Notes under the pieces: model-generated
Databases searched by the model: none
What the model saw: only the letters and a program-made list of their open reading frames with translations
What the model was told of the DNA's origin: nothing
Shown here: one piece after another, positions 1,377 to 46,775 of the stretch
Layout of the letters: each line of letters opens with the position of its first letter
Position numbering within the stretch: position 1 is the first letter of the stretch
Assembly: GCA_026397255.1 (NCBI GenBank)
Contig: JAPLVF010000013.1
Span: 150,062 to 214,061, forward strand
Length of the DNA stretch: 64,000 nucleotides
Source: Candidatus Beckwithbacteria bacterium
Lineage (GTDB): Bacteria > Patescibacteriota > Microgenomatia > UBA1400 > CG1-02-47-37
Direction of reading: 5' to 3'
Made by a program: the position numbers and the translations under genes

Positions 1377-1805
1377 ATGAATACAATTCCCTTTACCCAA
1401 GACGGATTAGATAAAATTAGTGCCGAAAGAGATAAGCTGACGGCCGAGCGGCCGGAAGTGGTCGGCAATTTGCAAAAAGCCCGGGAAATGGGCGATCTGT
1501 CCGAAAACGGCTACTACAAAGAATCAAAAGCCAGACTGGGATGGCTGGACGGCCGGTTAAGATATTTAAACCGGTTAATTAAACAGGCGGAAATTGTTAA
1601 AAGCGGCCAAGTGACGCTAACTGACGGGAAAAAGACTTATGAATACAAGATTGTCGGCGGTTACGAATCCAATCCGCAAGAAAAGACAATTTCCTACCAG
1701 TCGCCTCTTGGCAGGGCAATTTTGGGGAAAAAGGCCGGAGAAACAGTTAAGGTACAAACACCGAACGGCTTGGTGGAATATAAAATCTTAAAAATCAGCG
1801 CTTGA
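1377..1805 (+). CDS. greA: Transcription elongation factor GreA
   Basis: 142 aa. Contains LT..G..KL..EL and the GDLSENGYYKESK motif typical of GreA, plus a C-terminal FKBP-like part. Confidence 0.85.
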   Translation: MNTIPFTQDGLDKISAERDKLTAERPEVVGNLQKAREMGDLSENGYYKESKARLGWLDGRLRYLNRLIKQAEIVKSGQVTLTDGKKTYEYKIVGGYESNPQEKTISYQSPLGRAILGKKAGETVKVQTPNGLVEYKILKISA

Positions 1806-3615
1806 AATTTAAGTCTTTTTTACGAAGACGCAAAGATTTGGGGGTCACTTCCAACAGCTCATCCGTGCCGATAAAAGTTAAGTATTGCTCCAAAGACATT
1901 TTTAAAGCCGGAGTAATTTTAATGGTGGCGTCGGCGATAACCGAGCGGACGTTGGTTTTTTGTTTACCTTTGCAAACATTCATGTGCATATCCCCTTGGC
2001 GGGTACTTAAACCAACCACCATCCCGCGATAAACGACATCCCCGGGATTCACAAACGAGAGACCGCGTTCCTGTAAATTAGCAATGCTATAAGATAGGGT
2101 TTGGCCGGATTCGTCGGAAACAATGGCGCCGTTACGGACAAAACTTAAGTCTTCACCCTGGGGTTCATAATCCAAAAACTCCGAGTTAACCACGCACATG
2201 CCGGAGGTTTGGGATAATAAATCGCCGCGAAAACCGATTAAATTCCGGGTGGAAATTTTATACTCAAAGCGGACGCCGGATTTTAAGTTAGCCATGTTTA
2301 ACATGACCGCTTTTCTTTGGCCTAAAGAATTAATGACGGTGCCGGAATATTTTTCCGGAACTTCGACATAAAGTTTTTCAAACGGCTCGCAGGTTTTCCC
2401 GGCAATTTCCTGGAAAATCACTTCCGGCCGGGAAACGGAAAATTCAAAACTTTCGCGGCGCATAGTTTCAATCAGAATGGATAAATGGAGTTCGCCGCGG
2501 CCGGCGACGACAAAACTGTTACCGGAAGAACCAGGAGTAATCTTTAAACTGATATTGGTCTCAATTTCTTTTTTCAGACGGCTGGAAATTTGGCGGGAAG
2601 TAGTGAGTTTGCCATCTTGACCGACGAGGGGCGAAGTGGAAACAGACAGCTCGACTTTAAGAATCGGCGGGGTAATATTTAAACCCGGCAGGCCTGCCAA
2701 AACATTAACATCGGTTAAAGTATCGCCGATCTGGACGTCTTTAAAACCAGCTAGGGCAATAATATCGCCGGTGTCGGCTTGCTTGATAGCTTCTTTAATC
2801 AAACCTTTAAAAGTAAATAAATATTCCACTTGAGACTGGCTGATTTTCTGGCCATTGCGGACCACGGCTAAAAAATCGTGTAATTTGATGACTCCCCGAT
2901 TGACCTTACCAATAGAGTAACGGCCTTTGTGAGCATCATAGTCCAGGTTGGTAATTTGAATCTGGGCCGGACCGGTTGGTTCGCCTGATGGTGCCGGAAT
3001 CGTATCAATAATGGTTTGAAATAAAAGCGCTAAATCTTTGGCGTCGGTAATGGTTAAAGAGTGATTAGGATTAAGTATGGTTTGCGTACCGACTATCCCC
3101 TGGCGGCCGACAGCATATAAAACCGGAAATTCCAGTTGCTCGGCGTTTTCAGCCAAATCCACAAATAAATCGTTAATTTCGTTTAAAACCACTTCGGCCC
3201 GCTGATCTTTGCGGTCGACTTTGTTGATAATGACGATCGGCTGGAGGCCGAGCTTTAAGGCTAAAGACAAAACATAACGGGTTTGGGAAAGAACGCCTTC
3301 GGCGGCATCAACTAACAGGAGACAGCCTTCGGCCATGTTTAACACCCGTTCAACTTCACCGGAAAAATCAGCGTGGCCGGGAGTATCGATAATGTTGATT
3401 TTATAGTCGTGCCAATGGATGGCCGTGTTTTTGGCCAAAATCGTGATGCTGCGCTCGCGTTCCAAAGCATTGGAATCCATAATCGTGTCCTGCTGCATTT
3501 CGGACTGGTAAGCGGCAAAAGTGTGGGATTGCTTCAGCAAATGATCGACCAGGGTGGTTTTACCATGGTCAACATGGGCAATAATGGCGATATTTCTGAT
3601 TTTGCTTTGATCCAT
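1795..3615 (-). CDS. typA: Translational GTPase BipA/TypA
   Basis: 606 aa. Has [20 protein letters not shown]1, DTPGHADF and NKVD motifs, with the domain order and length of BipA. Confidence 0.9.
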   Translation of the reverse strand: MDQSKIRNIAIIAHVDHGKTTLVDHLLKQSHTFAAYQSEMQQDTIMDSNALERERSITILAKNTAIHWHDYKINIIDTPGHADFSGEVERVLNMAEGCLLLVDAAEGVLSQTRYVLSLALKLGLQPIVIINKVDRKDQRAEVVLNEINDLFVDLAENAEQLEFPVLYAVGRQGIVGTQTILNPNHSLTITDAKDLALLFQTIIDTIPAPSGEPTGPAQIQITNLDYDAHKGRYSIGKVNRGVIKLHDFLAVVRNGQKISQSQVEYLFTFKGLIKEAIKQADTGDIIALAGFKDVQIGDTLTDVNVLAGLPGLNITPPILKVELSVSTSPLVGQDGKLTTSRQISSRLKKEIETNISLKITPGSSGNSFVVAGRGELHLSILIETMRRESFEFSVSRPEVIFQEIAGKTCEPFEKLYVEVPEKYSGTVINSLGQRKAVMLNMANLKSGVRFEYKISTRNLIGFRGDLLSQTSGMCVVNSEFLDYEPQGEDLSFVRNGAIVSDESGQTLSYSIANLQERGLSFVNPGDVVYRGMVVGLSTRQGDMHMNVCKGKQKTNVRSVIADATIKITPALKMSLEQYLTFIGTDELLEVTPKSLRLRKKDLNFKR

Positions 3616-3692
3616 AGTATTTTGGGTACAATCTGTTAATTATACGCTTAATTGATATAATTATATTATCCGGATCACTGAATTAAACTATA

Positions 3693-3745
3693 ATTTGATT
3701 GCTTTAATCGTTAAAAAGAGAGGAAATTCCTGACGGCTGCGATTT
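3693..3745. repeat. 53-bp direct repeat, copy A, abutting the radical-SAM gene stop codon
   Basis: atttgattgctttaatcgttaaaaagagaggaaattcctgacggctgcgattt. By-eye alignment to copy B at 5310-5362 matches about 47 of 53 positions. Confidence 0.8.
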
Positions 3746-5258
3746 AAAAATGACTTTGGCTTAGCCAATTTTTATAACCGGCATCGAGATCTCTCTGGAT
3801 CTTATTGTCCATATACCCTCTCGCCTCAAGTTCTATGGTTGATAAATAAGTTTCCACCCCCCAAGGTAATCCTGATTTAATTATTGCAAGCATAAGGTTG
3901 GTCGCTGCCATTTTTGAGTCGAAATTGTTTCTGAATGTATTTGTAATTTCTTTTGGTGTATATAATGTTCTCATTAACCAATAATACCCCTGTTGGAGCT
4001 GGTCAGATGTCATATTTTTTGGTTCAAAAACGGAAATTCGATGGTTGTAATGCAATGTATCTCTATCTTTAATCCTTCCTTGTCTTTCCATCTGAATTCC
4101 CCATGGAGTAGATGGATATGGCGTGGCCAGATGCAAAAATGTGTAAGGAACTTTGAGCGATTTTAATATGTAAGCATGCCTGTAAAATGTATCGGGAAAG
4201 CTATGATTATCCAAACCAACAACTACAGATAGATTTAATGGTATACCCATCTCCTTAAAAACAACTTCTGCTTTTGCGAGTAATGTGACTTCTTTATCCT
4301 TTGAACCCGCAACGCGTGGGGTGACTATGTCGTCCGCTCCATAAAGAAAGGAAAAACATCCTCCCCCACCATATTTTGCTGACATAAGACGCAAAAGACT
4401 TTTATCAGGGCCAAAATTTTCTAAATCTTCAAGAAGAGGAGCAACCGTCCCTTCTGTGTACCAATGAATTCCTGTTTTATTCAAATAAGTAAATAGCTCA
4501 TATAAAACTTCTCTTGGGATGGCTGAAGTATTTAAGTCTGTAGAAAATAAATGGTCGCCTTTTCCTAAGCCCATCTGCTTAATTTCCTTAATAATATCCT
4601 CGGCGCTTCTATACCTTACCTCATCGTCCCCACCTCTTTGCATTCTAGTCGGACTGCAAAATGAGCAATAATTAGTACAGCCTCTTTGCCATTCTTGCGG
4701 ATGTCTACGCAGTTTTTCCAGAACTCCCGGTAATTTTGAAAAAATGGACCTATCCGGATAAACATAATCCTTCATATCAAAAGGTTCCATTTTTCTTGAA
4801 TCATATTCATCTTTAAGCCTTCCTGATAAAAGATCGGTCATAAATTCTTCCGCAACAGGTTCAAATTCGCCCTTTACCCGGACATCAGCTTCAGCAAACG
4901 ATTCAGGGCTAAAAGTAGGACTATAGCCACCAACGATAACCCTTTTACCTTTTAGCTTGGCAATTCTTGTCGCTTCCTTCGCCATTGATGTATCAAAGTG
5001 TCTGGCTGAGATAAAAACGTTTCCAACATTTTCAATTAATCCCTCAAGAGCGGAAGATCCTTTCGGAGACATCTGCGCATAGGTAGTCTTAAAGCCGGCA
5101 GCTTTCAGATAGGAACTGACTATGGCGATTCCAAGAGGATCAAGGTGTTCCAAATATTTCCGTATTTTCCCAACCGCCGGCCTTTTTTCATCATAATGTT
5201 GAGGGCCGGCTAAGAGTAAAGCTCGTCTTTCTACTGACATGCGGTCATTATAGGACAT
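3744..5258 (-). CDS. B12-binding-domain radical SAM protein
   Basis: 504 aa. Contains the CTNYCSFC radical-SAM CxxxCxxC cluster, preceded by a Rossmann-like N-terminal domain (VIVGGYSP...). The gene is bounded exactly by the 53-bp direct repeats. Confidence 0.6.
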   Translation of the reverse strand: MSYNDRMSVERRALLLAGPQHYDEKRPAVGKIRKYLEHLDPLGIAIVSSYLKAAGFKTTYAQMSPKGSSALEGLIENVGNVFISARHFDTSMAKEATRIAKLKGKRVIVGGYSPTFSPESFAEADVRVKGEFEPVAEEFMTDLLSGRLKDEYDSRKMEPFDMKDYVYPDRSIFSKLPGVLEKLRRHPQEWQRGCTNYCSFCSPTRMQRGGDDEVRYRSAEDIIKEIKQMGLGKGDHLFSTDLNTSAIPREVLYELFTYLNKTGIHWYTEGTVAPLLEDLENFGPDKSLLRLMSAKYGGGGCFSFLYGADDIVTPRVAGSKDKEVTLLAKAEVVFKEMGIPLNLSVVVGLDNHSFPDTFYRHAYILKSLKVPYTFLHLATPYPSTPWGIQMERQGRIKDRDTLHYNHRISVFEPKNMTSDQLQQGYYWLMRTLYTPKEITNTFRNNFDSKMAATNLMLAIIKSGLPWGVETYLSTIELEARGYMDNKIQRDLDAGYKNWLSQSHF

Positions 5259-5304
5259 TATTTTCTAAATACAACAATTCTTTGTAGAACCTAAAGGCGA
5301 TGAG

Positions 5305-6048
5305 TTATGATTTGATGGCCTTAATCGTTAAAAAGAGAGGGAATTCTGAACGGCTGCGATTTTCCATTTTGGCAGCGCCACCCTCGCTGGATTTATCCGA
5401 AGTCCATTCTTCAATTAATTGAATGACAAAACCGGCTGAGGCCAGCATTTGGGAATAAACCGACAGCGGCTGATGAAAACTCCAGGTCACGGAAGAATGG
5501 CGCTGGCCGGGGTGCATCTGAATGGGAATTTCTAAAGGAGACAAATAACGGTTAATCCGGCGATACTGCAGTTTGTTAGCTTCATCAATCCCCCAGCTGG
5601 ATTGGCGGGGAATCCGGAAACAAGGATGGTTAAGGACAATGACTAAAGTGCCATTTTTAATTAGGTGCTTCCCGGCATTAGTGATGACGCAGGCCGGAGT
5701 TTTAATGTTTTGTAAAGATAAAATTAAAGTAGCGTGGGTAAAGTCCTGGGCCACAGACAGCGGTTTAGACACGTCAGCCACAAGGTATTGATGGTGGGTA
5801 TTTTTGTCGGAACGCTTGGCAGATTCAATTAAGTTCGGAGATAGATCAATCCCGGTATAACTAATGGCCGGGGCCAAACGGCGGGCTAGAACGCCAGCAC
5901 CGCAAGCTAAGTCTAAAATTTTACTTTTTGAATTTAAATTTAACAGCTTTAGAACACCCCCAAGAACAATGTGTTCGTGATAATAGTGACCGGAACCGGC
6001 AGTTAACTCGCTATACCAGCGACTATCTTTTTGCCAAGAAGTTTGCAT
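5305..6048 (-). CDS. Class I SAM-dependent methyltransferase
   Basis: Motif I ILDLACGAGVL and a Rossmann-fold methyltransferase pattern. The C-terminal tail lies inside repeat B. Confidence 0.6.
   Translation of the reverse strand: MQTSWQKDSRWYSELTAGSGHYYHEHIVLGGVLKLLNLNSKSKILDLACGAGVLARRLAPAISYTGIDLSPNLIESAKRSDKNTHHQYLVADVSKPLSVAQDFTHATLILSLQNIKTPACVITNAGKHLIKNGTLVIVLNHPCFRIPRQSSWGIDEANKLQYRRINRYLSPLEIPIQMHPGQRHSSVTWSFHQPLSVYSQMLASAGFVIQLIEEWTSDKSSEGGAAKMENRSRSEFPLFLTIKAIKS
5310..5362. repeat. 53-bp direct repeat, copy B; also encodes the last ~18 codons of the methyltransferase gene
   Basis: atttgatggccttaatcgttaaaaagagagggaattctgaacggctgcgattt. Its reverse complement reads ...MENRSRSEFPLFLTIKAIKS followed by a stop. 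Confidence 0.8.
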
Positions 6049-6602
6049 AGACGGGAATTAATTAATGATTGGGGGAGATGGCGGGATTGCCATTTATTGA
6101 TTAAAAATTTCATGGTTTCAACTTTTTCGTAAGGAAAAATAATCCAGGCATCGGTTTTATAACCATAAAAATCCGGCTTAAAAATTGAGTGAGGTTTGTA
6201 AAAAAGTGAGGCGGTGGTAATGCTGCGGACGTTATTTTTTAATAAATGGCTTTTTGTAAACTTAAATGATTCGCCGGTATCGGCAACATCATCAAACAGC
6301 AATACCTGTTCGCCTTTCAGGCTAACCGGAAAATCCTGGTAAATCTTTGGCTTAACAAATCTTTGATTAACCCCGGAATAAAATTTGATACCTAAACTGG
6401 CCACCTGTCCTACTTCCAAAAAATCGACTAAAGAGCGGGTCATCGGCCAACCGCCTTTAGCTAAAGTTACAATCCGGTCGAATTTTTTGCCGGCCTGAAT
6501 CATTTTTTGAGAAATTTGAAACGCTAAATCGTTCATGTCATCCCAAGTGGGAGTAATAAATTTAATTTTTTCACCGGGAAAACTAATGTTTGGTAAATTC
6601 AT
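6003..6602 (-). CDS. Phosphoribosyltransferase family protein (purine PRTase-like)
   Basis: PRPP-binding motif VLLFDDVADTGES. Overlaps the downstream methyltransferase by 46 bp. Confidence 0.55.
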   Translation of the reverse strand: MNLPNISFPGEKIKFITPTWDDMNDLAFQISQKMIQAGKKFDRIVTLAKGGWPMTRSLVDFLEVGQVASLGIKFYSGVNQRFVKPKIYQDFPVSLKGEQVLLFDDVADTGESFKFTKSHLLKNNVRSITTASLFYKPHSIFKPDFYGYKTDAWIIFPYEKVETMKFLINKWQSRHLPQSLINSRLCKLLGKKIVAGIAS

Positions 6603-7068
6603 AGAAAGTAAAATTATAATTATTTTCAGTATAGTCTGCTTTCTTTAATAATTTAAAGTGGGAGTAATCGGGGAAAAAGACGTCGGCGTGAAAGTCGCCT
6701 TTAACTTTAGTCACATAAAGCTTATCAACCAAATTTTGGGCTAAAGCCTGACGGTAAATTTCAGCGCCGCCGATAATGAAGACTTCTTTTTTATCGATAG
6801 ACTGAGCTAGATCGATGGCTTCTTTTAAAGAGTGGGTGATCTCTACATTCCGTTTTGGAACGGAATAGGGGTGGCGGGTAACGATAATATTGGTCCGACC
6901 AGGTAAAGATTTGCCTATGGACTCGTAAGTTTTTCTGCCCATAATCACCGGGTGGCCGGTAGTGATGGTTTTAAAATGGCTAAAATCTTTTTTGATATGC
7001 CAAAGCAGCCGGTTTTTAGCGCCGATGCCTAACTTATTATCATGGGCCACAATAATCGAAATTTTCAT
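6583..7068 (-). CDS. folA: Dihydrofolate reductase
   Basis: 161 aa. MKISIIVAHDNKLGIG...LLWH...DF..FK..T.G..VIMGRKTYESIG is the classic DHFR N-terminus, and the gene sits next to thyA. Confidence 0.85.
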   Translation of the reverse strand: MKISIIVAHDNKLGIGAKNRLLWHIKKDFSHFKTITTGHPVIMGRKTYESIGKSLPGRTNIIVTRHPYSVPKRNVEITHSLKEAIDLAQSIDKKEVFIIGGAEIYRQALAQNLVDKLYVTKVKGDFHADVFFPDYSHFKLLKKADYTENNYNFTFYEFTKH

Positions 7069-7075
7069 AAATTTA

Positions 7076-7102
7076 CTCTATCACATTCCGGGAATGTGAT
7101 TA
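7076..7102. repeat. REP-like palindrome, subtype I (copy 1), in the folA-thyA intercistronic gap
   Basis: ctctatcacattccgggaatgtgatta has 10-bp perfectly complementary arms. The same 26 bp recur at 46776-46802. Confidence 0.8.
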
Positions 7103-8050
7103 GAATCCTCCGACAACGGTAATATCGGCTTTAATGCCGGAATGCGGATTGTAGCCAATAACCTCAAAATCTGCGAATTTAAAATCGTCAATGTTGGTAA
7201 CTTTGGGGTTTATTTTCATCACCGGAAACGGACGGGGCTGGCGTTTCAACTGAGTCTTGACCTGTTCAATATGATTGGCATAAATATGGGCGTCGCCGAA
7301 AGTGTGGATAAACTCACCCGGCTGGTAACCGGTAACCTGGGCGAGCATTAAAGTCAGTAAAGCGTAAGAAGCAATATTAAACGGTACGCCTAAAAACATA
7401 TCGGCCGAGCGCTGATATAAAAGCAGAGATAATTTATTAGCGGTAATATTAATGTGAAACAGGGTGTGACAAGGAGCAATGACCATGGAAGCGTCGTGTG
7501 AGCCGGACATTTCGTAAATACAGCCGGCGTTCCAAGCGGAAATAATGTAGTGCTTTTTTTGTGGATATTTTTTAATCTTCTCAATCGCCCAGCCGAGTTG
7601 ATCGATAGTACGGGGCTTGCCCGCCGAAGCCTCGGCGAAGGCGGGCCAGTGGCGCCATTGGACGCCGTAAACTGCGCCTAGTTGGCCGTATTTTTCGACA
7701 AAACCGGATTTATTTTTCAGGTTAACCATAAATTCTTCATAAGGTATCGGTTTGGTAACGCCCCAGCTATATTTTTTGTAGGCCCATTCGTCCCAAATGT
7801 GGACGTCATTGTCGATTAAATATTTAATATTGGAGGAGCCGGATAAAAACCATAAAAGTTCGTGGATGATCCCGCGGACAAAAACTTTTTTAGTGGTTAA
7901 AAGCGGGAACCCTTTGGACAAATCAAAGCGGATTTGCCGGCCGAAAACCGATTTTAATTTGACCCCGGTCGAGTGGCTGATTTTCCATTGGCCGTTGTCC
8001 AGAATGTCCTGAAGCAAATCTAAATATTGATATTCCGGGTGTTTTGACAT
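7100..8050 (-). CDS. thyA: Thymidylate synthase ThyA
   Basis: ThyA motifs: R..DLS.GFPLLTTKKVF, LWFL.G..N and ...PCH.LFH. The start is placed at MSKHPEYQYLDLL; the ORF-track start at 8104 adds an unlikely 18 codons. Confidence 0.9.
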   Translation of the reverse strand: MSKHPEYQYLDLLQDILDNGQWKISHSTGVKLKSVFGRQIRFDLSKGFPLLTTKKVFVRGIIHELLWFLSGSSNIKYLIDNDVHIWDEWAYKKYSWGVTKPIPYEEFMVNLKNKSGFVEKYGQLGAVYGVQWRHWPAFAEASAGKPRTIDQLGWAIEKIKKYPQKKHYIISAWNAGCIYEMSGSHDASMVIAPCHTLFHINITANKLSLLLYQRSADMFLGVPFNIASYALLTLMLAQVTGYQPGEFIHTFGDAHIYANHIEQVKTQLKRQPRPFPVMKINPKVTNIDDFKFADFEVIGYNPHSGIKADITVVGGF

Positions 8051-8077
8051 ATAAATAGTTTCTGTTATCATTAAACA

Positions 8078-8560
8078 ATGAAAACAAAAAAAAGCCAACC
8101 CCAACTAAAAAACCCAAGAATCTTCGTGATTGTTTTAGCAATTTTAGCGTTTTTAGGTTTGTTGTTTTATTTTAAAAATCAAATTGTGGTGGCTTGGGTA
8201 AACGGCCGGCCAATCTGGAAGTTGAGCTATAGCCAAGAATTAAATCGACTGGCCGGACAACAGGCATTAAATTCGGTGATTACTAAAACTTTAATTACCA
8301 GTGAAGCTAAAAAACAAAAAGTCAGTGTGGCTAATAATGAAATTCAGGCCGAGATCAGCCGGATAGAAGACTTAGCAAAACAGCAAGGGACTGATTTAAA
8401 TGAACTGTTAACTTTACAAGGGATGACGAGGCAAGACCTGACGGAAGATATCAAATTAAACAAATTGGTAGAAAAAATGGCCGGAACTGAAAGCGCGCAG
8501 ATTCAGGATTGGCTGACCAATTTACAAACGCAGGCGAAGATAATTAAGTGGGTCAAGTAA
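8078..8560 (+). CDS. Hypothetical membrane-anchored protein (SurA-N/chaperone-like?)
   Basis: 160 aa with an N-terminal TM helix followed by a charged helical domain. No firm family assignment. Confidence 0.4.
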   Translation: MKTKKSQPQLKNPRIFVIVLAILAFLGLLFYFKNQIVVAWVNGRPIWKLSYSQELNRLAGQQALNSVITKTLITSEAKKQKVSVANNEIQAEISRIEDLAKQQGTDLNELLTLQGMTRQDLTEDIKLNKLVEKMAGTESAQIQDWLTNLQTQAKIIKWVK

Positions 8561-10168
8561 AACTTTAAAAAGATTGGGAAGAAGAGGTTTAAAAGTAATT
8601 TCGGTTTCTTTCGGGTTAAGCGGGGAATAAAGCTGACGCGGCAGAAATTCCGGTTTTAATAAAACAAAACGGTAAAGGTTTTCCGGAACTAAATTGTACA
8701 AAAATACCGGCTGGCTTAGGCCATTATTAACCTGAAGGTTTAATTTTGTCTGCAATTCGTTTCTCTCATCGTAAACTAACAGCTGAAAATCATTCCCGCT
8801 GACCTGACGCTTAAACAGCATTTTGATATGAGCCACCAATGACGGCGGCGGGACAACTTTGATGGTTTGGTAAAACTTTTCCCCGAAAGGTTTGCCTTTA
8901 AGGCTTAATTGAAGGCCAAGAGAAAAATCTTGATGATCAGGCGGAGTTTTTAAGTTAATTTTAAAATCGGCTGTTTGAAACGGCTCGGTGGAATTAACCA
9001 GACTAACCTGAACCAGGTCCGGAGGAAAATCGCCGCTAGTTAATAAACTAAAATCAGCCGGTGTCCAAATGGACTGGCCGGTATTGGTTAAACTTAAGGA
9101 AAATTCATAAACAGAATTGTCAATTAAGGAACCGGGGATGTTCTTAGAAACAATGCTACTGGAATTATTTTGCTCCGGCCGGCCGGCAATTTTTGGTAAA
9201 GATTGAACCGCATAATAATGGGGGTAAAAATCGGCAGAGTTTGGCTTCCTCCAAGAAAATTGATTAAAGGGGCTTTCGGAATAATTTAAGATAAACGGGG
9301 TAATGGTCACTAAGTTGCTTTGGGTCCAAATTTGGGTAAAGGCTTGAGTATAGCGATCAGTTAAATTATTGGAATAAAAATTAGTCCAGCCGGTTTCCGT
9401 AATAAAAATCGGCAGGGAGGAATTTAATCCAAGGGTTGCAAGGTAATTAACCTCTGCCTGATAGCTTTGCAATGTTCCCAGGCCTTTAGCGGTGGGCAAA
9501 CCGGAAAAATCAGGATTGGGATAACTATGAGAGTTCCAGCCATCAAAAAGCGTAAAAATATCGTGATCGGCTTGATACATACGCTGCCAATAATTAACAG
9601 CGGAGAGGGTGGAGTTAGAGTTGGGGGCGGCGGTATCCAGTCCAGCCGGCAAAATAAAAAAATCTTCTGAAGCGGCCTTTAACTTGTCATGAAATTGCCG
9701 CACAATCGAGCTATATTCCGACGGATTAATCGAGTTCTCCCATTCCAAGGCATGATTGGGCTCATTAAAAAGAATCACATAGCGGTTGGTAACTACCCAA
9801 TTTAAAGAATTAAGGAAATCAACCCAGGTCTGAACTTCCGAAACTTCAGGTTTAACCCAGTAATTTTTTTCAGGATTAGTCGCCAGTCGAACAAGAGGAA
9901 TCAAGTGCAAACGGCGCAATTGATCAAAGACAGTCTGCCATTTATTTTTATCCCGGTCGTTCTGCCGGATGATTAAAGTCACGTAGCCCCAATCGCCTCC
10001 CTGACTATTAACTAAAGCGGCCGCAGCCGGAATATCCGCGGGCTCAAGAATGTGAATACCAAAACGATTATTAGGAACGGATAAAGGATTAACGATTGCC
10101 TGAGCCGGCCGGCTCGAAACCAGTAAGAAAATAAATAAACTGAGAAAAACCCAAAAAATTCTAGACAT
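8522..10168 (-). CDS. Secreted glycoside hydrolase, clan GH-A (GH5-like)
   Basis: Signal peptide MSRIFWVFLSLFIFLLVSSRPAQA. Candidate acid/base motif VILFNEPN and nucleophile motif IFITETGW lie about 125 aa apart. Confidence 0.45.
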   Translation of the reverse strand: MSRIFWVFLSLFIFLLVSSRPAQAIVNPLSVPNNRFGIHILEPADIPAAAALVNSQGGDWGYVTLIIRQNDRDKNKWQTVFDQLRRLHLIPLVRLATNPEKNYWVKPEVSEVQTWVDFLNSLNWVVTNRYVILFNEPNHALEWENSINPSEYSSIVRQFHDKLKAASEDFFILPAGLDTAAPNSNSTLSAVNYWQRMYQADHDIFTLFDGWNSHSYPNPDFSGLPTAKGLGTLQSYQAEVNYLATLGLNSSLPIFITETGWTNFYSNNLTDRYTQAFTQIWTQSNLVTITPFILNYSESPFNQFSWRKPNSADFYPHYYAVQSLPKIAGRPEQNNSSSIVSKNIPGSLIDNSVYEFSLSLTNTGQSIWTPADFSLLTSGDFPPDLVQVSLVNSTEPFQTADFKINLKTPPDHQDFSLGLQLSLKGKPFGEKFYQTIKVVPPPSLVAHIKMLFKRQVSGNDFQLLVYDERNELQTKLNLQVNNGLSQPVFLYNLVPENLYRFVLLKPEFLPRQLYSPLNPKETEITFKPLLPNLFKVLLDPLNYLRLRL

Positions 10169-10171
10169 GTT

Positions 10172-10972
10172 TTAGATTAGGGCAGGCGGTTTACCGGCAG
10201 AATGGGTCACCGGACCTAAAGGGACCTCATTGTGCGGATCGTCAACAAATAAAACAATGACTTTGCCTTTCGTGTTTTTTGGATAAAGACCAAGGTCGAC
10301 CATGACTTGCGGTGAGCCGCCGAATTGCTTACCGGTCTGTTTAGCCGGACCGGCATCGGCGATAACCGCGACTACGGCCGCACCGGTTTGAGGATTAACC
10401 ACTAAAACCTTACGATATTGAAACCACTGCTTCAATTGGTTGGCTTGCTGCGGCCAATCAGGTAAATATAAGGTTTGCACCGCCACATAATATTTTTCCC
10501 GTTCCCGATCCACCTTCGCCAAGGCTTCGGCAGACGAAGCAAAATAACCCCAAGCACCGGTGCCGGGAGCCAGCCCGACCTGGGGAAAGCTACGACCTTC
10601 CAGGGTGTCGCCCGGATAACGCAAGAGGTGCTGCTCCAAACCGATAAGGCCAATTTGGTTATTTAAGCGCTTCCCTTCGAGTTCGGCTACAGCTTTAATC
10701 CCCAGAGTTTTTTGAATTGCTTGCGTGATTGACAATTCTTCTTTTTCGGTTAAAACACGGTTGAACGACGGCAAAACTTTATTTAAATATTTACTTAAGA
10801 TTTTTTTTATTTCTTCATCATTAACTAATCCCAGGGGGAGACGCAATTCCGGCGGCTTGTCCGGCAAAGCTTTTAATGATTGCGAACCGGAAGTCAACAA
10901 TAAACTGCCGGCTAAAGAGGCAGAAGCCAATAAGTTTTTACCACTGATTTTATTCAAGTGTTTTTTGGGCAT
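10172..10972 (-). CDS. Hypothetical exported protein, possible RlpA-like DPBB C-terminal domain
   Basis: Signal-like N-terminus. C-terminal VLVVNPQTGAAVVAVIADAGP...VMVDLG resembles the N..G..V.V.DRGP...IDLS pattern of DPBB domains. The assignment is weak. Confidence 0.35.
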   Translation of the reverse strand: MPKKHLNKISGKNLLASASLAGSLLLTSGSQSLKALPDKPPELRLPLGLVNDEEIKKILSKYLNKVLPSFNRVLTEKEELSITQAIQKTLGIKAVAELEGKRLNNQIGLIGLEQHLLRYPGDTLEGRSFPQVGLAPGTGAWGYFASSAEALAKVDREREKYYVAVQTLYLPDWPQQANQLKQWFQYRKVLVVNPQTGAAVVAVIADAGPAKQTGKQFGGSPQVMVDLGLYPKNTKGKVIVLFVDDPHNEVPLGPVTHSAGKPPALI

Positions 10973-12337: not shown

Positions 12338-13459
12338 TTGCATTTTAACAGAGAAACTAGCTATACTCAAAGAGAAATGGCAACTTTAACAGAAACCGCC
12401 GTTGGGGCCAAAAAAGTTTTTTTATTCGGCTTAGTGGCAGTAGTGGCATTTTTATTGTTACAAGTAGGTTTATTCTTTTTTAACACCTATCTTAAGGTGG
12501 TTAAGCCGGCTCCAACTCCGCCGCCGACAGTAGCTTTTGGTAAACTAACAAAAATTGCCTGGCCGCAAAAATTAAATCCGGAAATTACTTTAAGGTTGGA
12601 AACCACAACCGGAGGAACCCCAGATTTAGGCGATCGAGCCGAGGTTTATTTAATGCCGACATTCCGATCTAATTTTCTGGCACTTGACCAGGCTAAGCTG
12701 ACGGCAAAAAAAATGAGTTTTACCGATCAGCCGAAAGAAATTACCGACAGACGCTACCGCTGGGAAACTGAAGAATTTTTACCCTCAATCCTGGAAATGG
12801 ATATTATCAACGGCTCGTTTTCTTTAAAAAGAAATTGGCAAACCGACCCGACAATTTTGTCAGAAAAACAGTTGCCCGGAAAAGAACAGACAATAATTGA
12901 AGTGAAGAATTTTTTAAGGCAAGTGGGACTGTTAAGTAGCGAGTTGGAAAACGCCAGAATTGAGATTTCCTACTTAACGTTTTCCAGCGGTCAATATCAG
13001 AAAGCGGTGAGTTTATCGGAGGCGGACTTTGTTCAGGCAGATGTATTCCGGCCGGACATCAATAATCACGCCGTCTTTCCGCCCAACCCCCAAAAAGGGA
13101 TTATCAGTATTATTTTCTCCGGATCAAGAGAAACAGCCAAACAAATTATCCAGGTTGATTATAATTATTTCCCGGTTAACTTTGACCAATCGGCCACCTA
13201 TCCGATTAAATCGGCCAGCCAGGCCTGGAGAGAATTACAAACCAAACAAGGATTTATTGCCAGTGTCGGCAGCAGTAGTGAAGTAGTGGCAATAAGAAGA
13301 ATATATTTGGCCTATTATGACAGCGAGACCCCGAACGGGTTCTTAATGCCGATAATCGTCTTTGAAGGCGATAGTGGTTTTTATGGTTACGTGCCGGCAA
13401 TTACTAATGAATGGCTGACAGATTCTCCCAACGGTGATTCGCAAACGTCCAATCAATAA
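12338..13459 (+). CDS. Hypothetical membrane-anchored protein
   Basis: TM helix near the N-terminus and a proline-rich linker PAPTPPPT. No recognised domain. The start may instead be the MATLTE Met 13 codons downstream. Confidence 0.4.
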   Translation: MHFNRETSYTQREMATLTETAVGAKKVFLFGLVAVVAFLLLQVGLFFFNTYLKVVKPAPTPPPTVAFGKLTKIAWPQKLNPEITLRLETTTGGTPDLGDRAEVYLMPTFRSNFLALDQAKLTAKKMSFTDQPKEITDRRYRWETEEFLPSILEMDIINGSFSLKRNWQTDPTILSEKQLPGKEQTIIEVKNFLRQVGLLSSELENARIEISYLTFSSGQYQKAVSLSEADFVQADVFRPDINNHAVFPPNPQKGIISIIFSGSRETAKQIIQVDYNYFPVNFDQSATYPIKSASQAWRELQTKQGFIASVGSSSEVVAIRRIYLAYYDSETPNGFLMPIIVFEGDSGFYGYVPAITNEWLTDSPNGDSQTSNQ

Positions 13460-19800: not shown

Positions 19801-19826
19801 TCTCACATACCGGGTGTGTGATAGAG
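19801..19826. repeat. REP-like palindrome (subtype II variant) 5 bp downstream of the RAYT gene stop
   Basis: tctcacataccgggtgtgtgatagag. The arms tcacatacc and ggtgtgtga pair with one G-T wobble. Confidence 0.75.
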
Positions 19827-19830
19827 AAAA

Positions 19831-20517
19831 TTAGTCAGTTTCAGGATTTTCAAGCAAGATGTGTTTAATTATTGATAGTTCTCTTTGATAATCAGCCTGG
19901 CCAAAAATAAAATCTTCATAACCATTAAGTTTTTTAAAATAGTTAACAATAATGTCTTTCTGACAAATTTCATTTTTTAATCTTAAGTATTCCGGAAGTG
20001 AAGAATATTGATAGTCTTTTAAGCTGGAGATTGTCTTGATGATTCCGGAACTATAAGGATTAAGATGGATATAGCGGGTAACGTGTAAAAGTTGTTGTTC
20101 CGTTTCGACTCTTATAGATTTAAATCTTCCTTGGAAAATTGGCCCTATTCTTTTATTCTTAACATTAAAATAATGAGTATAGCTTTCAGATAGTTTGCGC
20201 ATAAATTCAGAAATTCCTTTATCGTTAACTTGTTTTAAGAGAAAATGAAAATGATTAGGCATTAAACAATAACAGATGATCTCTACGAAATATTTTTTTG
20301 ATTCATTTAGTTTTAATAAATACTCTGCTCTTACTGATTGCGGTAATCGGGAAAAGTATGAATACCGCATTGATTGTTGGTAATGCTGATAGTAAAGAGC
20401 AGTTTCTAAGAATCGACGATAATAGCGATTATCATTGAAAATTGGCATTGAAGCTACGCCGCGATTAATAACGTGATAAATTTCCCCTGTAACTAAAGGA
20501 TCTTCTCTACTGGGCAT
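19831..20517 (-). CDS. Y1 HuH tyrosine transposase, REP-associated (RAYT / IS200-like TnpA)
   Basis: HuH motif CLMPNHFHFLL and the catalytic-Tyr motif VTRYIHLNP. The gene is bracketed by inverted REP palindromes (19801-19826 and 20538-20561). Confidence 0.7.
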   Translation of the reverse strand: MPSREDPLVTGEIYHVINRGVASMPIFNDNRYYRRFLETALYYQHYQQSMRYSYFSRLPQSVRAEYLLKLNESKKYFVEIICYCLMPNHFHFLLKQVNDKGISEFMRKLSESYTHYFNVKNKRIGPIFQGRFKSIRVETEQQLLHVTRYIHLNPYSSGIIKTISSLKDYQYSSLPEYLRLKNEICQKDIIVNYFKKLNGYEDFIFGQADYQRELSIIKHILLENPETD

Positions 20518-20537
20518 TGATTTTTATACTACTATTA

Positions 20538-20575
20538 CTATCACACACCGGGTGTGTGATGTCGAGAATGTGATG
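20538..20575. repeat. REP-like palindrome subtype II (copy 3) plus an adjacent half-site
   Basis: ctatcacacaccgggtgtgtgatg has perfect 10-bp arms and is followed by gagaatgtgatg, a subtype-I half-site. The palindrome supplies the last codons (HHTPGV) and stop of secF. Confidence 0.8.
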
Positions 20576-26517: not shown

Positions 26518-27324
26518 ATGAGTCTTTTAAGGTGGTTTTATCAGCTTTCCTGGAAAAAAATTATGGGGTTTGGAATTTTCCTGCTGCTGGTGGCGGTAAT
26601 TCCGATCAGTATTCAAGTGGCGACTAACCAAACCCGAACCAGGTCGGAGGCGGCGTTAATCCATCCCAGTGTTCAACCGGTAACGGATAGGTTTGAAACA
26701 CCGGCTGGTCCGCCAAAAATTTATTTAGTCGATCACTTCTTCGGTAAAGTCGGCGATTCTGTCTTGATTCACGGCGAAAATCTGGGCGGAATTCACCCGC
26801 AAAGCGCGGTTTATCTGGCCGGCACGAAAATTCCCCACGAAAATTTGGTTTCCTGGACCGGCAGTTACATTGAATTTAAAGTTCCTGAGGGGGCTAAATC
26901 CGGAATAGTGGAAGTGAATATTTTAGGCCAGAAAACCAGTTGGCCGGGAATGTTTTTTGTGACGGACGAGTACACGGAAGCCGAATTGGCTTTAACCAAA
27001 AATCAAAACATTCCTAATGTTGCCAACTTAACGGCGACAAATATTCAATCGGCAGAAGAAATATTGGTGTGGCTGTTAATTTTCAGCGGCGACGGCGGCT
27101 TGACCATCAGTCCACTTAACGCCACAATTACTGAGCAAAATATAATTAACCTGCCGATTGGCAAAGTCTATGAACTGAAGCTAACCAACTTAAATGAAAA
27201 GGGGGAACTGTTAAAAATAGTTAAAGGTGAAAAACAGATGGTGGGGATTGCCCGGGCGGAAATTTCCCGTGCTGACAACACATTGATCCCGGTCAAATCC
27301 AACCCGCTATACGTGAGTTTTTAA
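26518..27324 (+). CDS. Membrane-anchored protein with an IPT/TIG-like domain
   Basis: N-terminal TM. IYLVDHFFGKVGDSVLIHGENLGG...VYLAGTKIP...GSYIEFKVPEGAKSGIVEV fits the IPT/TIG beta-sandwich pattern. Confidence 0.4.
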   Translation: MSLLRWFYQLSWKKIMGFGIFLLLVAVIPISIQVATNQTRTRSEAALIHPSVQPVTDRFETPAGPPKIYLVDHFFGKVGDSVLIHGENLGGIHPQSAVYLAGTKIPHENLVSWTGSYIEFKVPEGAKSGIVEVNILGQKTSWPGMFFVTDEYTEAELALTKNQNIPNVANLTATNIQSAEEILVWLLIFSGDGGLTISPLNATITEQNIINLPIGKVYELKLTNLNEKGELLKIVKGEKQMVGIARAEISRADNTLIPVKSNPLYVSF

Positions 27325-27325
27325 C

Positions 27326-27350
27326 CTATCACACACCGGGTGTGTGATTA
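27326..27350. repeat. REP-like palindrome subtype II (copy 4)
   Basis: ctatcacacaccgggtgtgtgatta, identical in its core to copy 3. It provides the terminal NHTPGV plus stop of ORF 27329..27904. Confidence 0.8.
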
Positions 27351-27904
27351 CTCAATAGCTGATGGGGAAAACACTCTTTTATTACCGCTTCTACGATTGC
27401 TTTTCGAACTGATCCATCAGGGATATTAAACCACCTAATGTTAAGACTTCTATTACGTTCCCATAGTATTTCCGATGCTCTGGCTATGGCAAATAATTCC
27501 GGACTAACATCTGTATATAATGAACGGCACTCAGATTTCGCTGCCAACTCATCAAGTTCAAAGGCTATCTCAAGCCTATGGCAAATTTGTTCAATTTCTT
27601 CATTTTTTAAATGATTAAATAATTTATTTCTAGAGGGGTTGTTGATAATAGCTTCGGAAATCTTACCAGGAGCGTCTCCTTCAATATCAGCATTTGCTTG
27701 TTGAGCCGCACTAAATCCTAATAAGCCTATTAAATGGGGATCATCAGTCACAATTCCAGGCAAACTTGGTTTAAAAGTTTCATCGTGGATCGCCTGCCGG
27801 TTAAATTTTCCCCAAAAGAAGGCTGTAGCTAATAGTATTACTTCTTTGTCATGAGGAGAGATATTTTTGAGGAACTCAGAAGGCCGAATCAATTCTTTTC
27901 CCAT
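27329..27904 (-). CDS. Hypothetical protein
   Basis: 191 aa with no recognisable domain and AT-rich codon usage. The C-terminal HTPGV and stop are read from the REP palindrome. Confidence 0.4.
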   Translation of the reverse strand: MGKELIRPSEFLKNISPHDKEVILLATAFFWGKFNRQAIHDETFKPSLPGIVTDDPHLIGLLGFSAAQQANADIEGDAPGKISEAIINNPSRNKLFNHLKNEEIEQICHRLEIAFELDELAAKSECRSLYTDVSPELFAIARASEILWERNRSLNIRWFNIPDGSVRKAIVEAVIKECFPHQLLSNHTPGV

Positions 27905-29490: not shown

Positions 29491-29854
29491 GCTAGGAAGC
29501 GGGATGACGCCCCACGTCGCTCTCACGAGCTATGCTGGGGAGGAAAGTCCGGACTGCTGGAAGCAGGGTGCTGGGCGAAAGCCTTGGGTCCGCTGGGCAT
29601 GGCCAGCGGACACAGTGAAGCCACAGAGACGAGTAGACCGCCGTCGCGTAAAGCTATGGCGGTCGAAGTGAAACGACCCTGACGCCTACGTTGTCAGGGG
29701 CTTGGGTAATTCTCCCCGCAGCAACTTCCGAACTGGCCGCTTGAGGACGCTTCCCCGAGGCCAAAAGCTTGAAGGCATAGAGAGATGTCATCTATACCCG
29801 TCGTCGCGTAAAGCTATGGCGGGTGAAACAGAATCCGGCTTACAGCTTCCTAGC
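29491..29854 (+). ncRNA. rnpB: RNase P RNA (bacterial type)
   Basis: P1 helix gctaggaagc (29491-29500) pairs with gcttcctagc (29845-29854). Conserved GGAGGAAAGTCCGGACTGC (P4 5' strand) and ACAGAATCCGGCTTA (P4 3' strand) are present, with GTGAAAC in between. A T-tract follows. Confidence 0.8.
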
Positions 29855-34210: not shown

Positions 34211-35298
34211 TTAATCACCTTGGGTCTATTTTTAAAATGTTTTAAGTTAATCAGTTTTTCTAAAATCTGCCAACGGCGTTTTTTTTCGGCAGCGGAAACA
34301 TCATCGGGAATTTTTGCGGCAGCTGTTCCCGGCCGGGGCGAATACTGATTAACAAAGGCAATTTGCCAATTAACTTGGTTAGCTAAATTAACCGTGGCTT
34401 GGAAGTCGGCTTCGGTTTCGCCGGGAAAGCCGACAATAATATCCGTTCCCAAAGTCAAACCTTTGACCTTAGTTTTTAATTTTTTAACTAATTTCAAGTA
34501 ATCCTGCCAGGTGTAACCGCGGTTCATGAGTTTTAAAATCCGGTTTGAGCCGGATTGAACCGGCAGATGGACATAACGGTCAATTTTTTTATTTTTGGCA
34601 ATACAGTCAATCAGAGCATCGGAAAAATCCCAAGGATTGGAAGTCATAAACCTGATTAACTTTAATTGATTAAAGCGGCAAACTTTTTCCAAAAGTTGAA
34701 CAAATGGTGGAACATCTTGCCTGGGCTGAGATTTCCTCAAACCAATGCCGACTTTATCCAAACCATAAGAATTAACGTTTTGACCCAAAAGGGTAATTTC
34801 GGTGTAACCTTTTTCCACCAACTGGCGGATTTCGACAAGAATGTCTAATTCAGGACGGGAGGTTTCCCGGCCGCGGGAGTAAGGGACAATACAGTAGGAA
34901 CAAAAGGAGTTGCAACCGTTGCTAATCGGCACCCAGGCGTGATGCTGGTCCCGCCTGATGCTGGCTTGGTTAAAACCGACTTCGTTGATGGGTAAAATTT
35001 CATCAACAGCAGGCAGCATGTCCAATAATTTTTCCTGGCCGTAATGAATCATGCAGCCGGTAAGAATTATTTTTTTCTTGCCTTTATTTTTGGCCAAATT
35101 TAGAAGTAAGCCAATTACCCGATCTTCGGCGGATTTACGGACAGAACAAGTGTTAATGATAATTTCATCAGCTGTTTGAATGTTCTTCGCCGGTTTAAAT
35201 CCCCGCTTTTGGTAATCGCCGGCAATCCGTTCCGAATCGGCCTTATTCATCTGGCAACCGAAAGTATAGATAAAGTAAGTTCTAGTCTTTTTCATCAC
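34207..35298 (-). CDS. miaB: tRNA methylthiotransferase MiaB-like (radical SAM MTTase)
   Basis: MTTase N-domain YIYTFGCQMNKADSE and radical-SAM CNSFCSYCIVP. Directly downstream of miaA. Shorter than canonical MiaB, so the TRAM domain is possibly absent. Confidence 0.7.
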   Translation of the reverse strand: MMKKTRTYFIYTFGCQMNKADSERIAGDYQKRGFKPAKNIQTADEIIINTCSVRKSAEDRVIGLLLNLAKNKGKKKIILTGCMIHYGQEKLLDMLPAVDEILPINEVGFNQASIRRDQHHAWVPISNGCNSFCSYCIVPYSRGRETSRPELDILVEIRQLVEKGYTEITLLGQNVNSYGLDKVGIGLRKSQPRQDVPPFVQLLEKVCRFNQLKLIRFMTSNPWDFSDALIDCIAKNKKIDRYVHLPVQSGSNRILKLMNRGYTWQDYLKLVKKLKTKVKGLTLGTDIIVGFPGETEADFQATVNLANQVNWQIAFVNQYSPRPGTAAAKIPDDVSAAEKKRRWQILEKLINLKHFKNRPKVIK

Positions 35299-36932
35299 GA
35301 GAAGTATTTTAACAGACGAGAGAAGAAAAATAGAGTTAAAGTAAATAATCCAAGACTGACAAGAGAAAGTTTATCGCCTAGCTGGCGGGCGGGAGTGTGT
35401 TCGGTAAAAGTGGAGATAACGGTGTGGGTGCCGGCGGTCAGATTATAGCCAATTAAACCAGGATAGTCCTGACGGTCATAAATAATTTGGGCCGGCTGGC
35501 CATCGACGGTCACTTCCCAACCAGGAAAGTAAGCAGTTTTTTCAAAAACCGGTTGGTCTTTAGGAACAGTAACCGTGTAAAGATGTTTTTGGGTTTGCCA
35601 GACTTGAACGACGCTTTTATCGGCATTAAAAACCCGGTCGGTATTTTGAGCCAATTTAAGAGCTTTGTCAGTCTCAAACCATTGAGGCCGGTACTCATTT
35701 TCAGTGGTAGAGGTAAACGGATATTGGAAATAGCTCATGTCCGGAGCATGAATAAAGCCCTGAGAATGAACATTAAGACCGGCATAAACGATAGCTACCA
35801 AAGCAACTAAAATACTCAAGCGCGGCCAAGCCTTGGCGACAAAGGCAGCTAAAAAAATCACGCTAAGGCTCATAAATAAAAGCAGGCGCCAGGGAAATTG
35901 GGCTTCGTAAATGAAAGGTAAGCGCAACCAAAACCATTGGGAAATGGGCAGGCTTAAAAACATAAAACCGGCAAAGGAAATTAAGAAAAACCAAGCTAAG
36001 TTTTTATTAATTTTCAGGTGACGTTTAAAAATCAGGGCAATAATTAATAAAACAATAATTAACCAATGGCCGGGGCCGAAATTAAAACTTAAACCATCGC
36101 CGGTGCCGGGAAAAGAAAAACCAAAACCCCACTTAGAAAAAAATAACTGTCCTAAAGTAGGAAAATGGTCTAAAAACCGCAATATCGGATGAACGGCTTT
36201 AATAATCGTAAATTGCTGTTCCATGACAAGGGGCAGCCAAAAAAACAAGCTTAAGCCAACGCTGATTAAAAAACTTAAACCAGCGATTAACCACTTCTTC
36301 TTTGACTGGCCCCATAAACTAACAAGGCTAAAGCCTAATAAAAGCGGCAAACCAAAAATAACACTGATGTTGTGACAAAGCAGAAAAGCAACCAGTGAAC
36401 TGGTGGCGAGAAAAAAACTTATACGGCCCGGTTTTTGAATTAACCGCCTTAAAAAAAGCAAGCACAGCGGCACAATCGACCAAACCAATATTTCTCCGGT
36501 CGAGCCGCGGACGAGAAAATTTACCCAAGGGTAAACGGCAGTTAAAGCAAAAACCGAGGCAATAAAAGCCGAGAAACTGCCGAATAATGGCAGTAAGAAA
36601 AAATACCAGGCAATCGGGGCCACCACGGTACTAATCATTAAAATCAGCTTTAAACTCCACTCAATTGATAAGCCTAAAGAGAATAAAGGCCAAGCTAAAA
36701 ATTCGGTTAAATAATAGCTAAAATTGAAAACCGGGTAGCCGTATTGGTAATTTAAACTGCCGGCCCAGCGCGGCGGCAGGTGGTGGTCACGCACGGCCAA
36801 ATAAAGATTGGCCAAACGGGCCAAATGCATTTCACCGTCGTGAGATTGGGGAAAACCGACATTAAACAGGCTGCGCATTAAAAAAACTGACAGGGCAATC
36901 AACACGAAACAAACCAAGAAGTTCTTTTTCAT
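35295..36932 (-). CDS. Large polytopic membrane protein, putative GT-C-type glycosyltransferase (YfhO/PMT-like)
   Basis: 545 aa with many TM helices, an early HDGEMH loop motif and a C-terminal soluble domain. Confidence 0.35.
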   Translation of the reverse strand: MKKNFLVCFVLIALSVFLMRSLFNVGFPQSHDGEMHLARLANLYLAVRDHHLPPRWAGSLNYQYGYPVFNFSYYLTEFLAWPLFSLGLSIEWSLKLILMISTVVAPIAWYFFLLPLFGSFSAFIASVFALTAVYPWVNFLVRGSTGEILVWSIVPLCLLFLRRLIQKPGRISFFLATSSLVAFLLCHNISVIFGLPLLLGFSLVSLWGQSKKKWLIAGLSFLISVGLSLFFWLPLVMEQQFTIIKAVHPILRFLDHFPTLGQLFFSKWGFGFSFPGTGDGLSFNFGPGHWLIIVLLIIALIFKRHLKINKNLAWFFLISFAGFMFLSLPISQWFWLRLPFIYEAQFPWRLLLFMSLSVIFLAAFVAKAWPRLSILVALVAIVYAGLNVHSQGFIHAPDMSYFQYPFTSTTENEYRPQWFETDKALKLAQNTDRVFNADKSVVQVWQTQKHLYTVTVPKDQPVFEKTAYFPGWEVTVDGQPAQIIYDRQDYPGLIGYNLTAGTHTVISTFTEHTPARQLGDKLSLVSLGLFTLTLFFFSRLLKYFS

Positions 36933-46769: not shown

Positions 46770-46775
46770 AAATAC

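Follow-up and report, generated by a model that had tools for sequence, protein, structure and literature searches.

A direct repeat that surrounds acquired DNA and restores the 3′ end of the adjoining gene is a footprint of a kind already known. Campbell-type and homology-facilitated integration are known mainly from laboratory constructs and transformation experiments. Among natural elements, cis-mobilizable elements (CIMEs) and integrase-less islands have direct repeats in which the 3′ end of a conserved target gene is duplicated, leave that target intact and encode no recombinase (PMC5704250), and the direct repeats made by IS1549/IS1634 are long and vary in length over 8-514 bp (PMC2266710). 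The minimal mobile elements of Neisseria present different whole genes, with no mobility genes, in the same interval of different genomes; they move through a double crossover that involves the flanking genes, after which no direct repeat remains (PMC3787668). Here we describe a related footprint in a 64 kb stretch of DNA from a Candidatus Beckwithbacteria bacterium (contig JAPLVF010000013.1; hereafter the window, in whose positions all coordinates are given unless another locus is named). A gene for a radical S-adenosylmethionine (SAM) enzyme, rSAM, lies there between two copies of the 3′ end of the gene for a class I SAM-dependent methyltransferase (MTase). In this Beckwithbacteria lineage a self-contained rSAM cassette of 1.56 kb was inserted exactly at the MTase stop codon, and the two 57-nt repeats are the duplicated MTase 3′ end that the insertion left behind.

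Several features set this locus apart from the systems named above. The acquired DNA amounts to one gene with its own, probably leaderless, promoter, lacks a recombinase, inverted repeats and an att core common to its family, and is found in Patescibacteria. Also unusual are analogous duplications of different local sequences at two other loci of the family.

The two copies of the repeat are identical at 50 of 57 positions, and their starts are separated by 1617 nt (Table 1). The original prediction, which was made from the letters of the sequence, had recognized a real repeat but gave it as 53 bp at 3693-3745 and 5310-5362, 4 nt short at the stop-codon end. It had correctly placed copy A at the rSAM stop codon (3744-3746), 2 nt inside which this copy starts, and copy B over the last ~18 residues of MTase, for which the count is 18 codons and two bases of the stop. 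Copy A lies 73 nt upstream of typA. The 20-nt exact core of the repeat occurs twice in the window, where 0.01 occurrences are expected, and among the loci fetched from elsewhere it is present only in L001, a separate assembly of the same organism (Logan SRR20698646), and the other 70-odd lack it. Identity of the L001 assembly over 4927-6110 confirms the copy-B junction, while the copy-A junction rests on one contig of a metagenome-assembled genome (MAG).

Controls set the repeat well apart from background. Comparison of the two flanks of rSAM gave a score of 36, as against a maximum of 10 for shuffled sequences. When the same comparison was made for each of 68 open reading frames (ORFs) of the window, scores above 12 were obtained only for rSAM and for an IS200-like transposase gene (17), which is flanked by hairpin repeats. 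An additional similarity, GCCAAA.T, just before the repeat is compatible with chance (estimated P about 0.09).

The repeated sequence is native MTase coding sequence and not an element-specific site, because the MTase C-terminal motif that it encodes, ENRxRxEFPLFLxIxAxK, is conserved in all 60 of the closest homologues. Copy B codes for the MTase C-terminus NRSRSEFPLFLTIKAIKS, and copy A, in a frame other than that of rSAM, reads NRSRQEFPLFLTIKAIKL and then a stop. This pseudo-stop, TAG, is located at 3688-3690, with its last base just beyond the repeat. If the third base of the stop is counted, the copies differ at eight positions; six codons are changed, of which four are changed synonymously, the frame is kept at a TCA/CAG codon and the stop remains a stop (TAA to TAG). 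Were the changes random, four or more synonymous codons of six would be expected with P = 0.027, and two or fewer changed residues with P = 0.003. Similarity between the copies stops exactly at the stop codon, and an AAAT microhomology is present at the junction between the end of rSAM and copy A. Copy B keeps MTase intact, and copy A is a dead relic.

Other identities for the repeat were considered and set aside. The refuting possibility that it might be a widespread terminator-like motif does not agree with its two copies per 64 kb and the lack of a hairpin; both copies are without structure by DNA folding (z = 0.3 and 1.1), and a widespread motif, a terminator and an attC site are ruled out on these grounds. 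No known RNA of the Rfam type was found in the region. A repetitive extragenic palindromic (REP) or terminator-like motif is likewise ruled out on copy number and structure; the real hairpin family of the genome differs in sequence. Copy A contains a TTAACG-16-TATAGT match that might have been retained as a promoter for typA. This was rejected because the -10 element of typA conserved with the syntenic relative L002 (AGCGTATAATTAACAGATT) lies outside copy A, and because the promoter scan did not rise above shuffled sequences.

The DNA between the copies forms one compact and complete transcription unit that consists wholly of promoter and ORF. A perfect TATAAT precedes the rSAM ATG by 6 nt and there is no Shine-Dalgarno sequence. 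The same hexamer is found 5-8 nt before the ATG in six further family members (L006, L008, L009, L068, L069 and L070), and since this arrangement recurs in the family, the rSAM mRNA is probably leaderless. The start codon at 5240 is that of the NCBI annotation and of all homologues; it lies 65 nt from the end of copy B, and the first in-frame ATG, at 5258, lies 47 nt from it. At the other end of the unit, a putative weak terminator-like hairpin, followed by a run of T residues, is formed by sequence that doubles as the code for a conserved WLSQSH.

Comparison with the closest homologues, L008 (82% amino acid identity) and L009 (81%), delimits the same unit. DNA homology to both sets in some 45-65 nt before the ATG and extends as far as ...AAGTCAT (SQSH), and the last codon or two and the stop codon of rSAM vary between loci. 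Because this homology begins and ends at the inner edges of the repeats, the conserved unit corresponds to the interval between them. The 3′ end of the cassette, TTTTAAAT, is common to the window and L009. The cassette ends bear no terminal inverted repeats; the top score for an inverted match between them is 6 in the window, which is the shuffle mean, and 8 in L009, which is within the shuffle range. No gene or remnant of an integrase or recombinase is present in the 1560 nt. A scan of 30 ORFs, covering the window up to about 40 kb, detected no integrase domain and a single transposase-like gene, of the Y1/IS200 type (19831-20517).

That the interval was inserted, as the original prediction held, is borne out by its atypical composition, its absence from a syntenic relative, the unrelated contexts of its homologues and the end of homology at the repeat edges. 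The G+C content at third codon positions (GC3) of rSAM is 0.325, as against a window mean of 0.438 (z = -2.2), and its coding-strand GC3 skew is +0.11, as against -0.14 (z = +1.8). The only syntenic relative (L002-L005), in which MTase is 75% and typA 82% identical, has the order thyA-...-phosphoribosyltransferase-MTase-[glyoxalase, M48 peptidase]-typA-...-greA with no rSAM, and its glyoxalase and M48 peptidase genes are both on the opposite strand. The MTase-typA interval is variable, and the rSAM gene there is peculiar to the present lineage. None of the related genomes shares the gene order together with both repeats, a finding that would have pointed to an ancient structured element.

The comparison of MTase-typA junctions that had been proposed as a check therefore yielded a relative without rSAM, but no clean empty site, because two other genes are located there. 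Further searches for an empty site gave the closest MTase relatives, P0003 and P0027, which are without conserved synteny. A search by way of the DsbA-like neighbour in L009, using a query padded with 10 consensus residues, returned only the divergent L074, which has no upstream homology.

Homologues of rSAM at nine loci occupy nine different neighbourhoods, and MTase is present in none of the nine. The upstream neighbour is a cytochrome-b5-domain (Cyt-b5) gene in L006 and a Nudix gene in L012. In L068 an ORF that looks by eye like an acetyltransferase (GNAT) ends just upstream, in L069 a Nudix gene is downstream, in L010 the homologue sits inside a tRNA cluster, and L008, L009, L011 and L070 present further, different neighbours.

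Table 1. Features of the 1.8-8.1 kb region of the window, in which all genes lie on the minus strand in the order thyA, DHFR (dihydrofolate reductase), phosphoribosyltransferase, MTase, rSAM, typA.
Feature	Coordinates	Strand	Description	Basis
thyA	7100-8104	-		
DHFR	6583-7068	-		
phosphoribosyltransferase	6003-6602	-		
MTase	5305-6048	-	class I SAM-dependent methyltransferase, 247 aa; target gene, intact	
Repeat copy B	5306-5362	-	functional; last 18 MTase codons and two stop-codon bases	
Inserted cassette	3746-5305	-	1560 nt; promoter region, leaderless-type rSAM ORF and terminator-like end	
TATAAT -10 box	5247-5252	-	6 nt upstream of the ATG at 5240	sequence reading
rSAM	3744-5240	-	radical-SAM ORF, 498 aa; real start 5240, first in-frame ATG 5258	
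Terminator-like hairpin	3756-3768	-	weak; TTGGCTAAGCCAA then AGTCATTTTT, overlapping the last rSAM codons	consensus scan only
Repeat copy A	3689-3745	-	non-functional duplicate of the MTase 3′ end	
typA/bipA	1795-3615	-	GTPase; downstream neighbour of rSAM	

Flanking duplications at the other loci of the family were sought by applying a uniform direct-repeat test to 350-nt flanks of ten loci, namely the window and the nine homologues, of which L008 has short flanks. Significant direct repeats were detected in the window and in L009. The L009 repeat, TAAAGCAGGCCGGTCTAGGGCCATTTTA, is identical at 25 of 28 positions, has a spacing of 1607 nt and runs into the contig end, so that its length is at least 28 nt. 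It is non-coding, and 1-4 nt lie between the rSAM stop codon and its downstream copy. A gapped alignment with the window repeat beyond the shared cassette end is not significant (P = 0.09-0.6), and the idea of a repeat that travels with the cassette was rejected on that result.

A third case is provided by L012, where a 174-aa Nudix gene (1908-2457 of that locus) is located upstream of rSAM. After the rSAM stop codon, at a distance of 6-18 nt, comes a copy of the promoter and initial codons of that gene, in which ATG has become ACG. This duplication has a DNA score of 39, compared to a null maximum of 29, and is followed by a stretch resembling the Nudix C-terminus. The downstream segment (4015-4160) is thus an eroded, internally deleted second copy of the Nudix gene. 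The Nudix gene itself reads TGCTATAAT-N6-ATG at its start, the same leaderless-type pattern as in the rSAM family.

The remaining loci have no flanking repeats above background. Duplications of local sequence directly around the rSAM unit are thus present at three of the ten loci. They differ in sequence and length, and those of the window, L009 and L012 are unrelated, with no att core in common. The evidence base is thin, comprising one good, one truncated and one eroded locus.

As the mechanism, we tentatively favour homology-dependent integration of a cassette that carried a donor copy of the MTase end. The cassette would have arrived with an MTase 3′ end copied from a related donor in which it already followed that gene, and recombination across the ~57 bp of homology with the resident MTase end would have left one repeat copy on either side of it. 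Integration could have proceeded by one crossover with a circular intermediate, of the Campbell type or att-like, or by illegitimate recombination anchored in the homology, and would have been carried out by RecA or by a recombinase acting in trans, none being encoded in the cassette. Differences that lean towards synonymous changes, with frame and stop kept, are what would result from divergence of both copies as coding alleles, and similarity that ends at the stop codon fits homology between donor and recipient ceasing there, which favours this route. The AAAT microhomology at the junction, the presence of recA and recJ genes within the window, and the lack of terminal inverted repeats or of a hairpin in the repeat also count in its favour. 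Campbell-type or homology-facilitated illegitimate recombination predicts a duplication as long as the homology, allele-like copy differences and junction microhomology, and all three are found here. The locus differs from such cases in that the homology is very short (57 bp, 86-88% identical) and no circle or donor was observed.

Several observations weigh against homology-dependent integration. Our searches found no MTase-rSAM donor arrangement, no circular junction and no true empty site, and in the nearest relative the MTase-typA site is occupied by two other genes. The synonymous bias is weak, given that target duplication followed by selection on copy B only gives a P of about 0.15, a value estimated by hand from a synonymous fraction of 0.228. 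At each of the three loci where repeats flank rSAM, 0-18 nt separate its stop codon from the downstream copy, and this suggests a defined element end, which random formation of circles does not predict. In addition, a homology this short and diverged is a poor substrate for RecA, and the model shifts the first insertion beside MTase to an earlier, unseen event.

A possible, though not likely, alternative is a long and variable target-site duplication made by a non-autonomous element whose movement depends on an enzyme encoded outside it. If that enzyme nicked the target at points tens to hundreds of bases from each other, fill-in would then have duplicated 57 bp in the window, at least 28 bp in L009 and the whole Nudix gene in L012. 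This account fits repeats that are unrelated in sequence at the three loci, each coming from local host DNA, and cassette ends that look constant (0-18 nt after the stop codon and 45-65 nt before the ATG). There is also a precedent in the IS1549/IS1634 repeats, the mechanism of which is unexplained (PMC2266710), and which share with the present ones their length, their derivation from the target and their variation in length between events. However, a DDE transposase gene and terminal inverted repeats are features of IS1549/IS1634 that the cassette lacks; of the hallmarks of a DDE transposon, a target-derived flanking duplication is present at this locus and terminal inverted repeats are absent.

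The same alternative is further weakened by the lack of a transposase in or next to the cassette. The only one seen in the scanned ORFs is the Y1/IS200-type gene, and transposases of this type are not known to make target duplications. Moreover, the copies differ by 12-14% with a lean towards synonymous changes, and transposition is not expected to give microhomology at a junction. The original prediction had spoken of site-specific or target-duplicating insertion; the insertion stands, and the data decide neither route. It seems quite unlikely that the locus represents a new kind of minimal mobile cassette of Patescibacteria, made of a single promoter and leaderless ORF, whose ends are defined and which lacks a recombinase, inverted repeats and hairpins. 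Such a cassette would enter varied sites with variable target duplications of tens to hundreds of bases, by means of trans-acting functions or host repair.

Direct repeats that restore the 3′ end of a conserved gene are also the classic footprint of tyrosine-recombinase islands, and the repeats could in principle be the attL and attR of a larger element that targeted the MTase 3′ end and has lost everything except rSAM. CIMEs do keep attL and attR while losing their integration genes (PMC5704250), and they resemble the present locus in their duplicated target end, their intact target and their lack of an encoded recombinase. The position of the L010 homologue inside a tRNA cluster would also suit an island of this sort. 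We nevertheless consider such a relic improbable. The locus contains one gene only and no decayed genes for integration or transfer, and the 1560 nt, being entirely promoter and ORF, have no room for gene remnants and include none of an integrase. The same tight boundaries are seen with other flanks in L008, L009 and L068, which independent decay would not produce. Finally, the repeats that flank the gene at other loci are unrelated in sequence, with no att core shared across the loci of the cassette family and no cognate integrase known.

Poorer still is the proposal that the repeats are what remains of a local tandem duplication of MTase eroded by deletion, with rSAM merely lying between the copies. 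The full Nudix gene upstream and deleted Nudix remnant downstream of rSAM in L012 demonstrate that flanking whole-gene duplicates occur and erode. In the window, however, a deletion would have to end exactly at the rSAM stop codon, and to do so again in L009, while the insertion of rSAM between the duplicates would still be needed, and tandem duplicates are rarely kept in streamlined genomes. An assembly artefact or chance similarity is highly improbable, since the single MAG contig that supports the copy-A junction is outweighed by a repeat score far above the shuffle and per-gene controls, by the independent assembly that confirms the copy-B junction, and by the imperfect nature of the 57-nt repeat, whose exact core of 20 nt would not fool assemblers using long k-mers.

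Three further comparisons were made. The MTase-typA interval resembles the sites of Neisseria minimal mobile elements (PMC3787668) in that it holds different whole genes in different genomes, with no mobility genes: rSAM here, and glyoxalase and M48 peptidase in L002, two genomes being available. It differs in its direct repeat, which the double crossover of those elements does not leave. An integron gene cassette is excluded, as the repeats fold into no attC hairpin and the unit has its own -10 box, and a phage origin was rejected because neither the rSAM protein nor the repeat has viral relatives among the sequences searched.

The product of rSAM combines an N-terminal Rossmann domain, resembling those that bind B12, with a CX3CX2C core in which C188, C192 and C195 are invariant. 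Matches to the Pfam families PF02310 (B12-binding; 33.9 bits, cut-off 32.1) and PF04055 (Radical_SAM; 33.7 bits, cut-off 29.5) narrowly exceed their thresholds, all NCBIfam matches are far below their cut-offs, and a sequence search of the PDB recovered nothing beyond the cluster motif. An AlphaFold2 model of the protein (predicted local distance difference test score, 89.6) has AprD4 (PDB 6fd2) as its best fold match, with a template modelling score of 0.64-0.70. The next matches are TsrM, CysS, TokK and MgmA, which are cobalamin-dependent methylases, and sequence identity to the fold matches is 13-17%. AprD4 is listed in the PDB as a radical SAM 1,2-diol dehydratase, not a methylase.

Class B radical SAM enzymes and AprD4 share the N-terminal Rossmann domain and the CX3CX2C radical SAM core, and judging from sequence and model the rSAM architecture appears class-B-like. 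The cargo had been described as a B12-binding enzyme of class B without an assigned substrate. Its class-B architecture and the lack of an assignable substrate agree with our results, but the label B12-binding is uncertain because AprD4 is not known to carry cobalamin in its Rossmann domain.

The family to which rSAM belongs is small. About 45 clusters were recovered at 90% identity. At 50% identity, about 11 clusters have E values below 1e-90 in a set of 1.84 billion representatives, and a distinct drop in score follows them. A genome scan for rSAM relatives found three family members only, and a metagenome scan with the generic CxxxCxxC pattern returned only distant radical-SAM genes. Members are seen mostly in Patescibacteria. 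A 47%-identical member is carried by L011 (CAZCGQ010000001.1, 278 kb), a contig labelled 'uncultured Gammaproteobacteria', and the other taxon-labelled matches of the family are to Patescibacteria. The L011 case may reflect an error of binning or labelling in a MAG, or a genuine transfer.

Neighbouring genes offer little guide to what the enzyme does, as a Nudix neighbour in two loci and a Cyt-b5 neighbour in one seem too little for a functional call. The small cytochrome-b5-domain gene is found immediately upstream of the rSAM homologue in L006/L007 (L006 7037-7390), where it could be a redox partner or a coincidence. Another gene with this domain lies near the MTase homologue in L072 (2444-2707). 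In L010 (380-1058 and 2630-2770) the order within the tRNA cluster is Arg, His, Arg, rSAM, Lys. The tRNA-Lys gene is preceded by one tRNA-like fragment, a 5′ half (GGGAGCGTAGCTCAATGG), and followed by another, a T-arm (GGTCGGAGGTTCGAATCCTCCC); these look like a tRNA gene split by tRNA-Lys, or a remnant.

Other repeats were noted in the window and in its relatives. The Y1 transposase ORF, IS200-like, is on the minus strand, encodes 228 aa (PF01797, E 7e-9) and has a GC content of 0.31, the lowest in the window. Hairpin repeats, TCACAyACCGGGTGTGTGA (19803-20569), lie on both sides of it; they are unrelated to the MTase repeat, and further intergenic copies of this hairpin family are present at 7054-7101, 27302-27357 and 46754-46801. 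Together, the transposase gene and the hairpin family look like a system of REPs and a REP-associated tyrosine transposase (REP/RAYT) in a Patescibacteria genome.

A 27-nt perfect hairpin repeat, AAGCCTACAAGGACAGTCCCTGTAGGT, occurs in L002 at 2235-2261, 2796-2822 and 2847-2873. One copy is inside the MTase 3′ end, where MTase is extended to 263 aa, and another follows the M48 peptidase gene. Together these two bracket the glyoxalase gene, and the third copy is diverged, with compensatory changes in the stem. A Y1_Tnp gene is located near the hairpin repeat region in L004. This 27-nt repeat was considered as a parallel to the MTase repeat and rejected, being a terminator- or REP-like hairpin just downstream of two minus-strand genes. 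Elsewhere in the window, four large ORFs (266-548 aa; 8522-10168, 10172-10972, 12377-13459 and 35295-36932) have no Pfam match at E 1e-5. Two short-range direct repeats, at 54572-54852 (41 nt, 80% identity, 240-nt spacing) and 29638-29827 (30 nt, 90% identity, 160-nt spacing), are probably internal to coding sequence.

Patescibacteria, also called the candidate phyla radiation (CPR), have tiny streamlined genomes with few recognizable mobile elements, and the means by which they gain genes are poorly understood. The locus described here is a clean gain of a single gene with its scar intact, in which the exact borders of the acquired DNA are visible. The acquired gene appears to have brought its own leaderless promoter, and the target was preserved by duplication of its last 57 bases. 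Its product belongs to one of the rarest radical-SAM families in public data, and its AprD4-like or class-B-like fold makes it a defined target for enzymology. Two more family members with analogous duplications hint at a recurrent route of gene gain for which a systematic search could be made.

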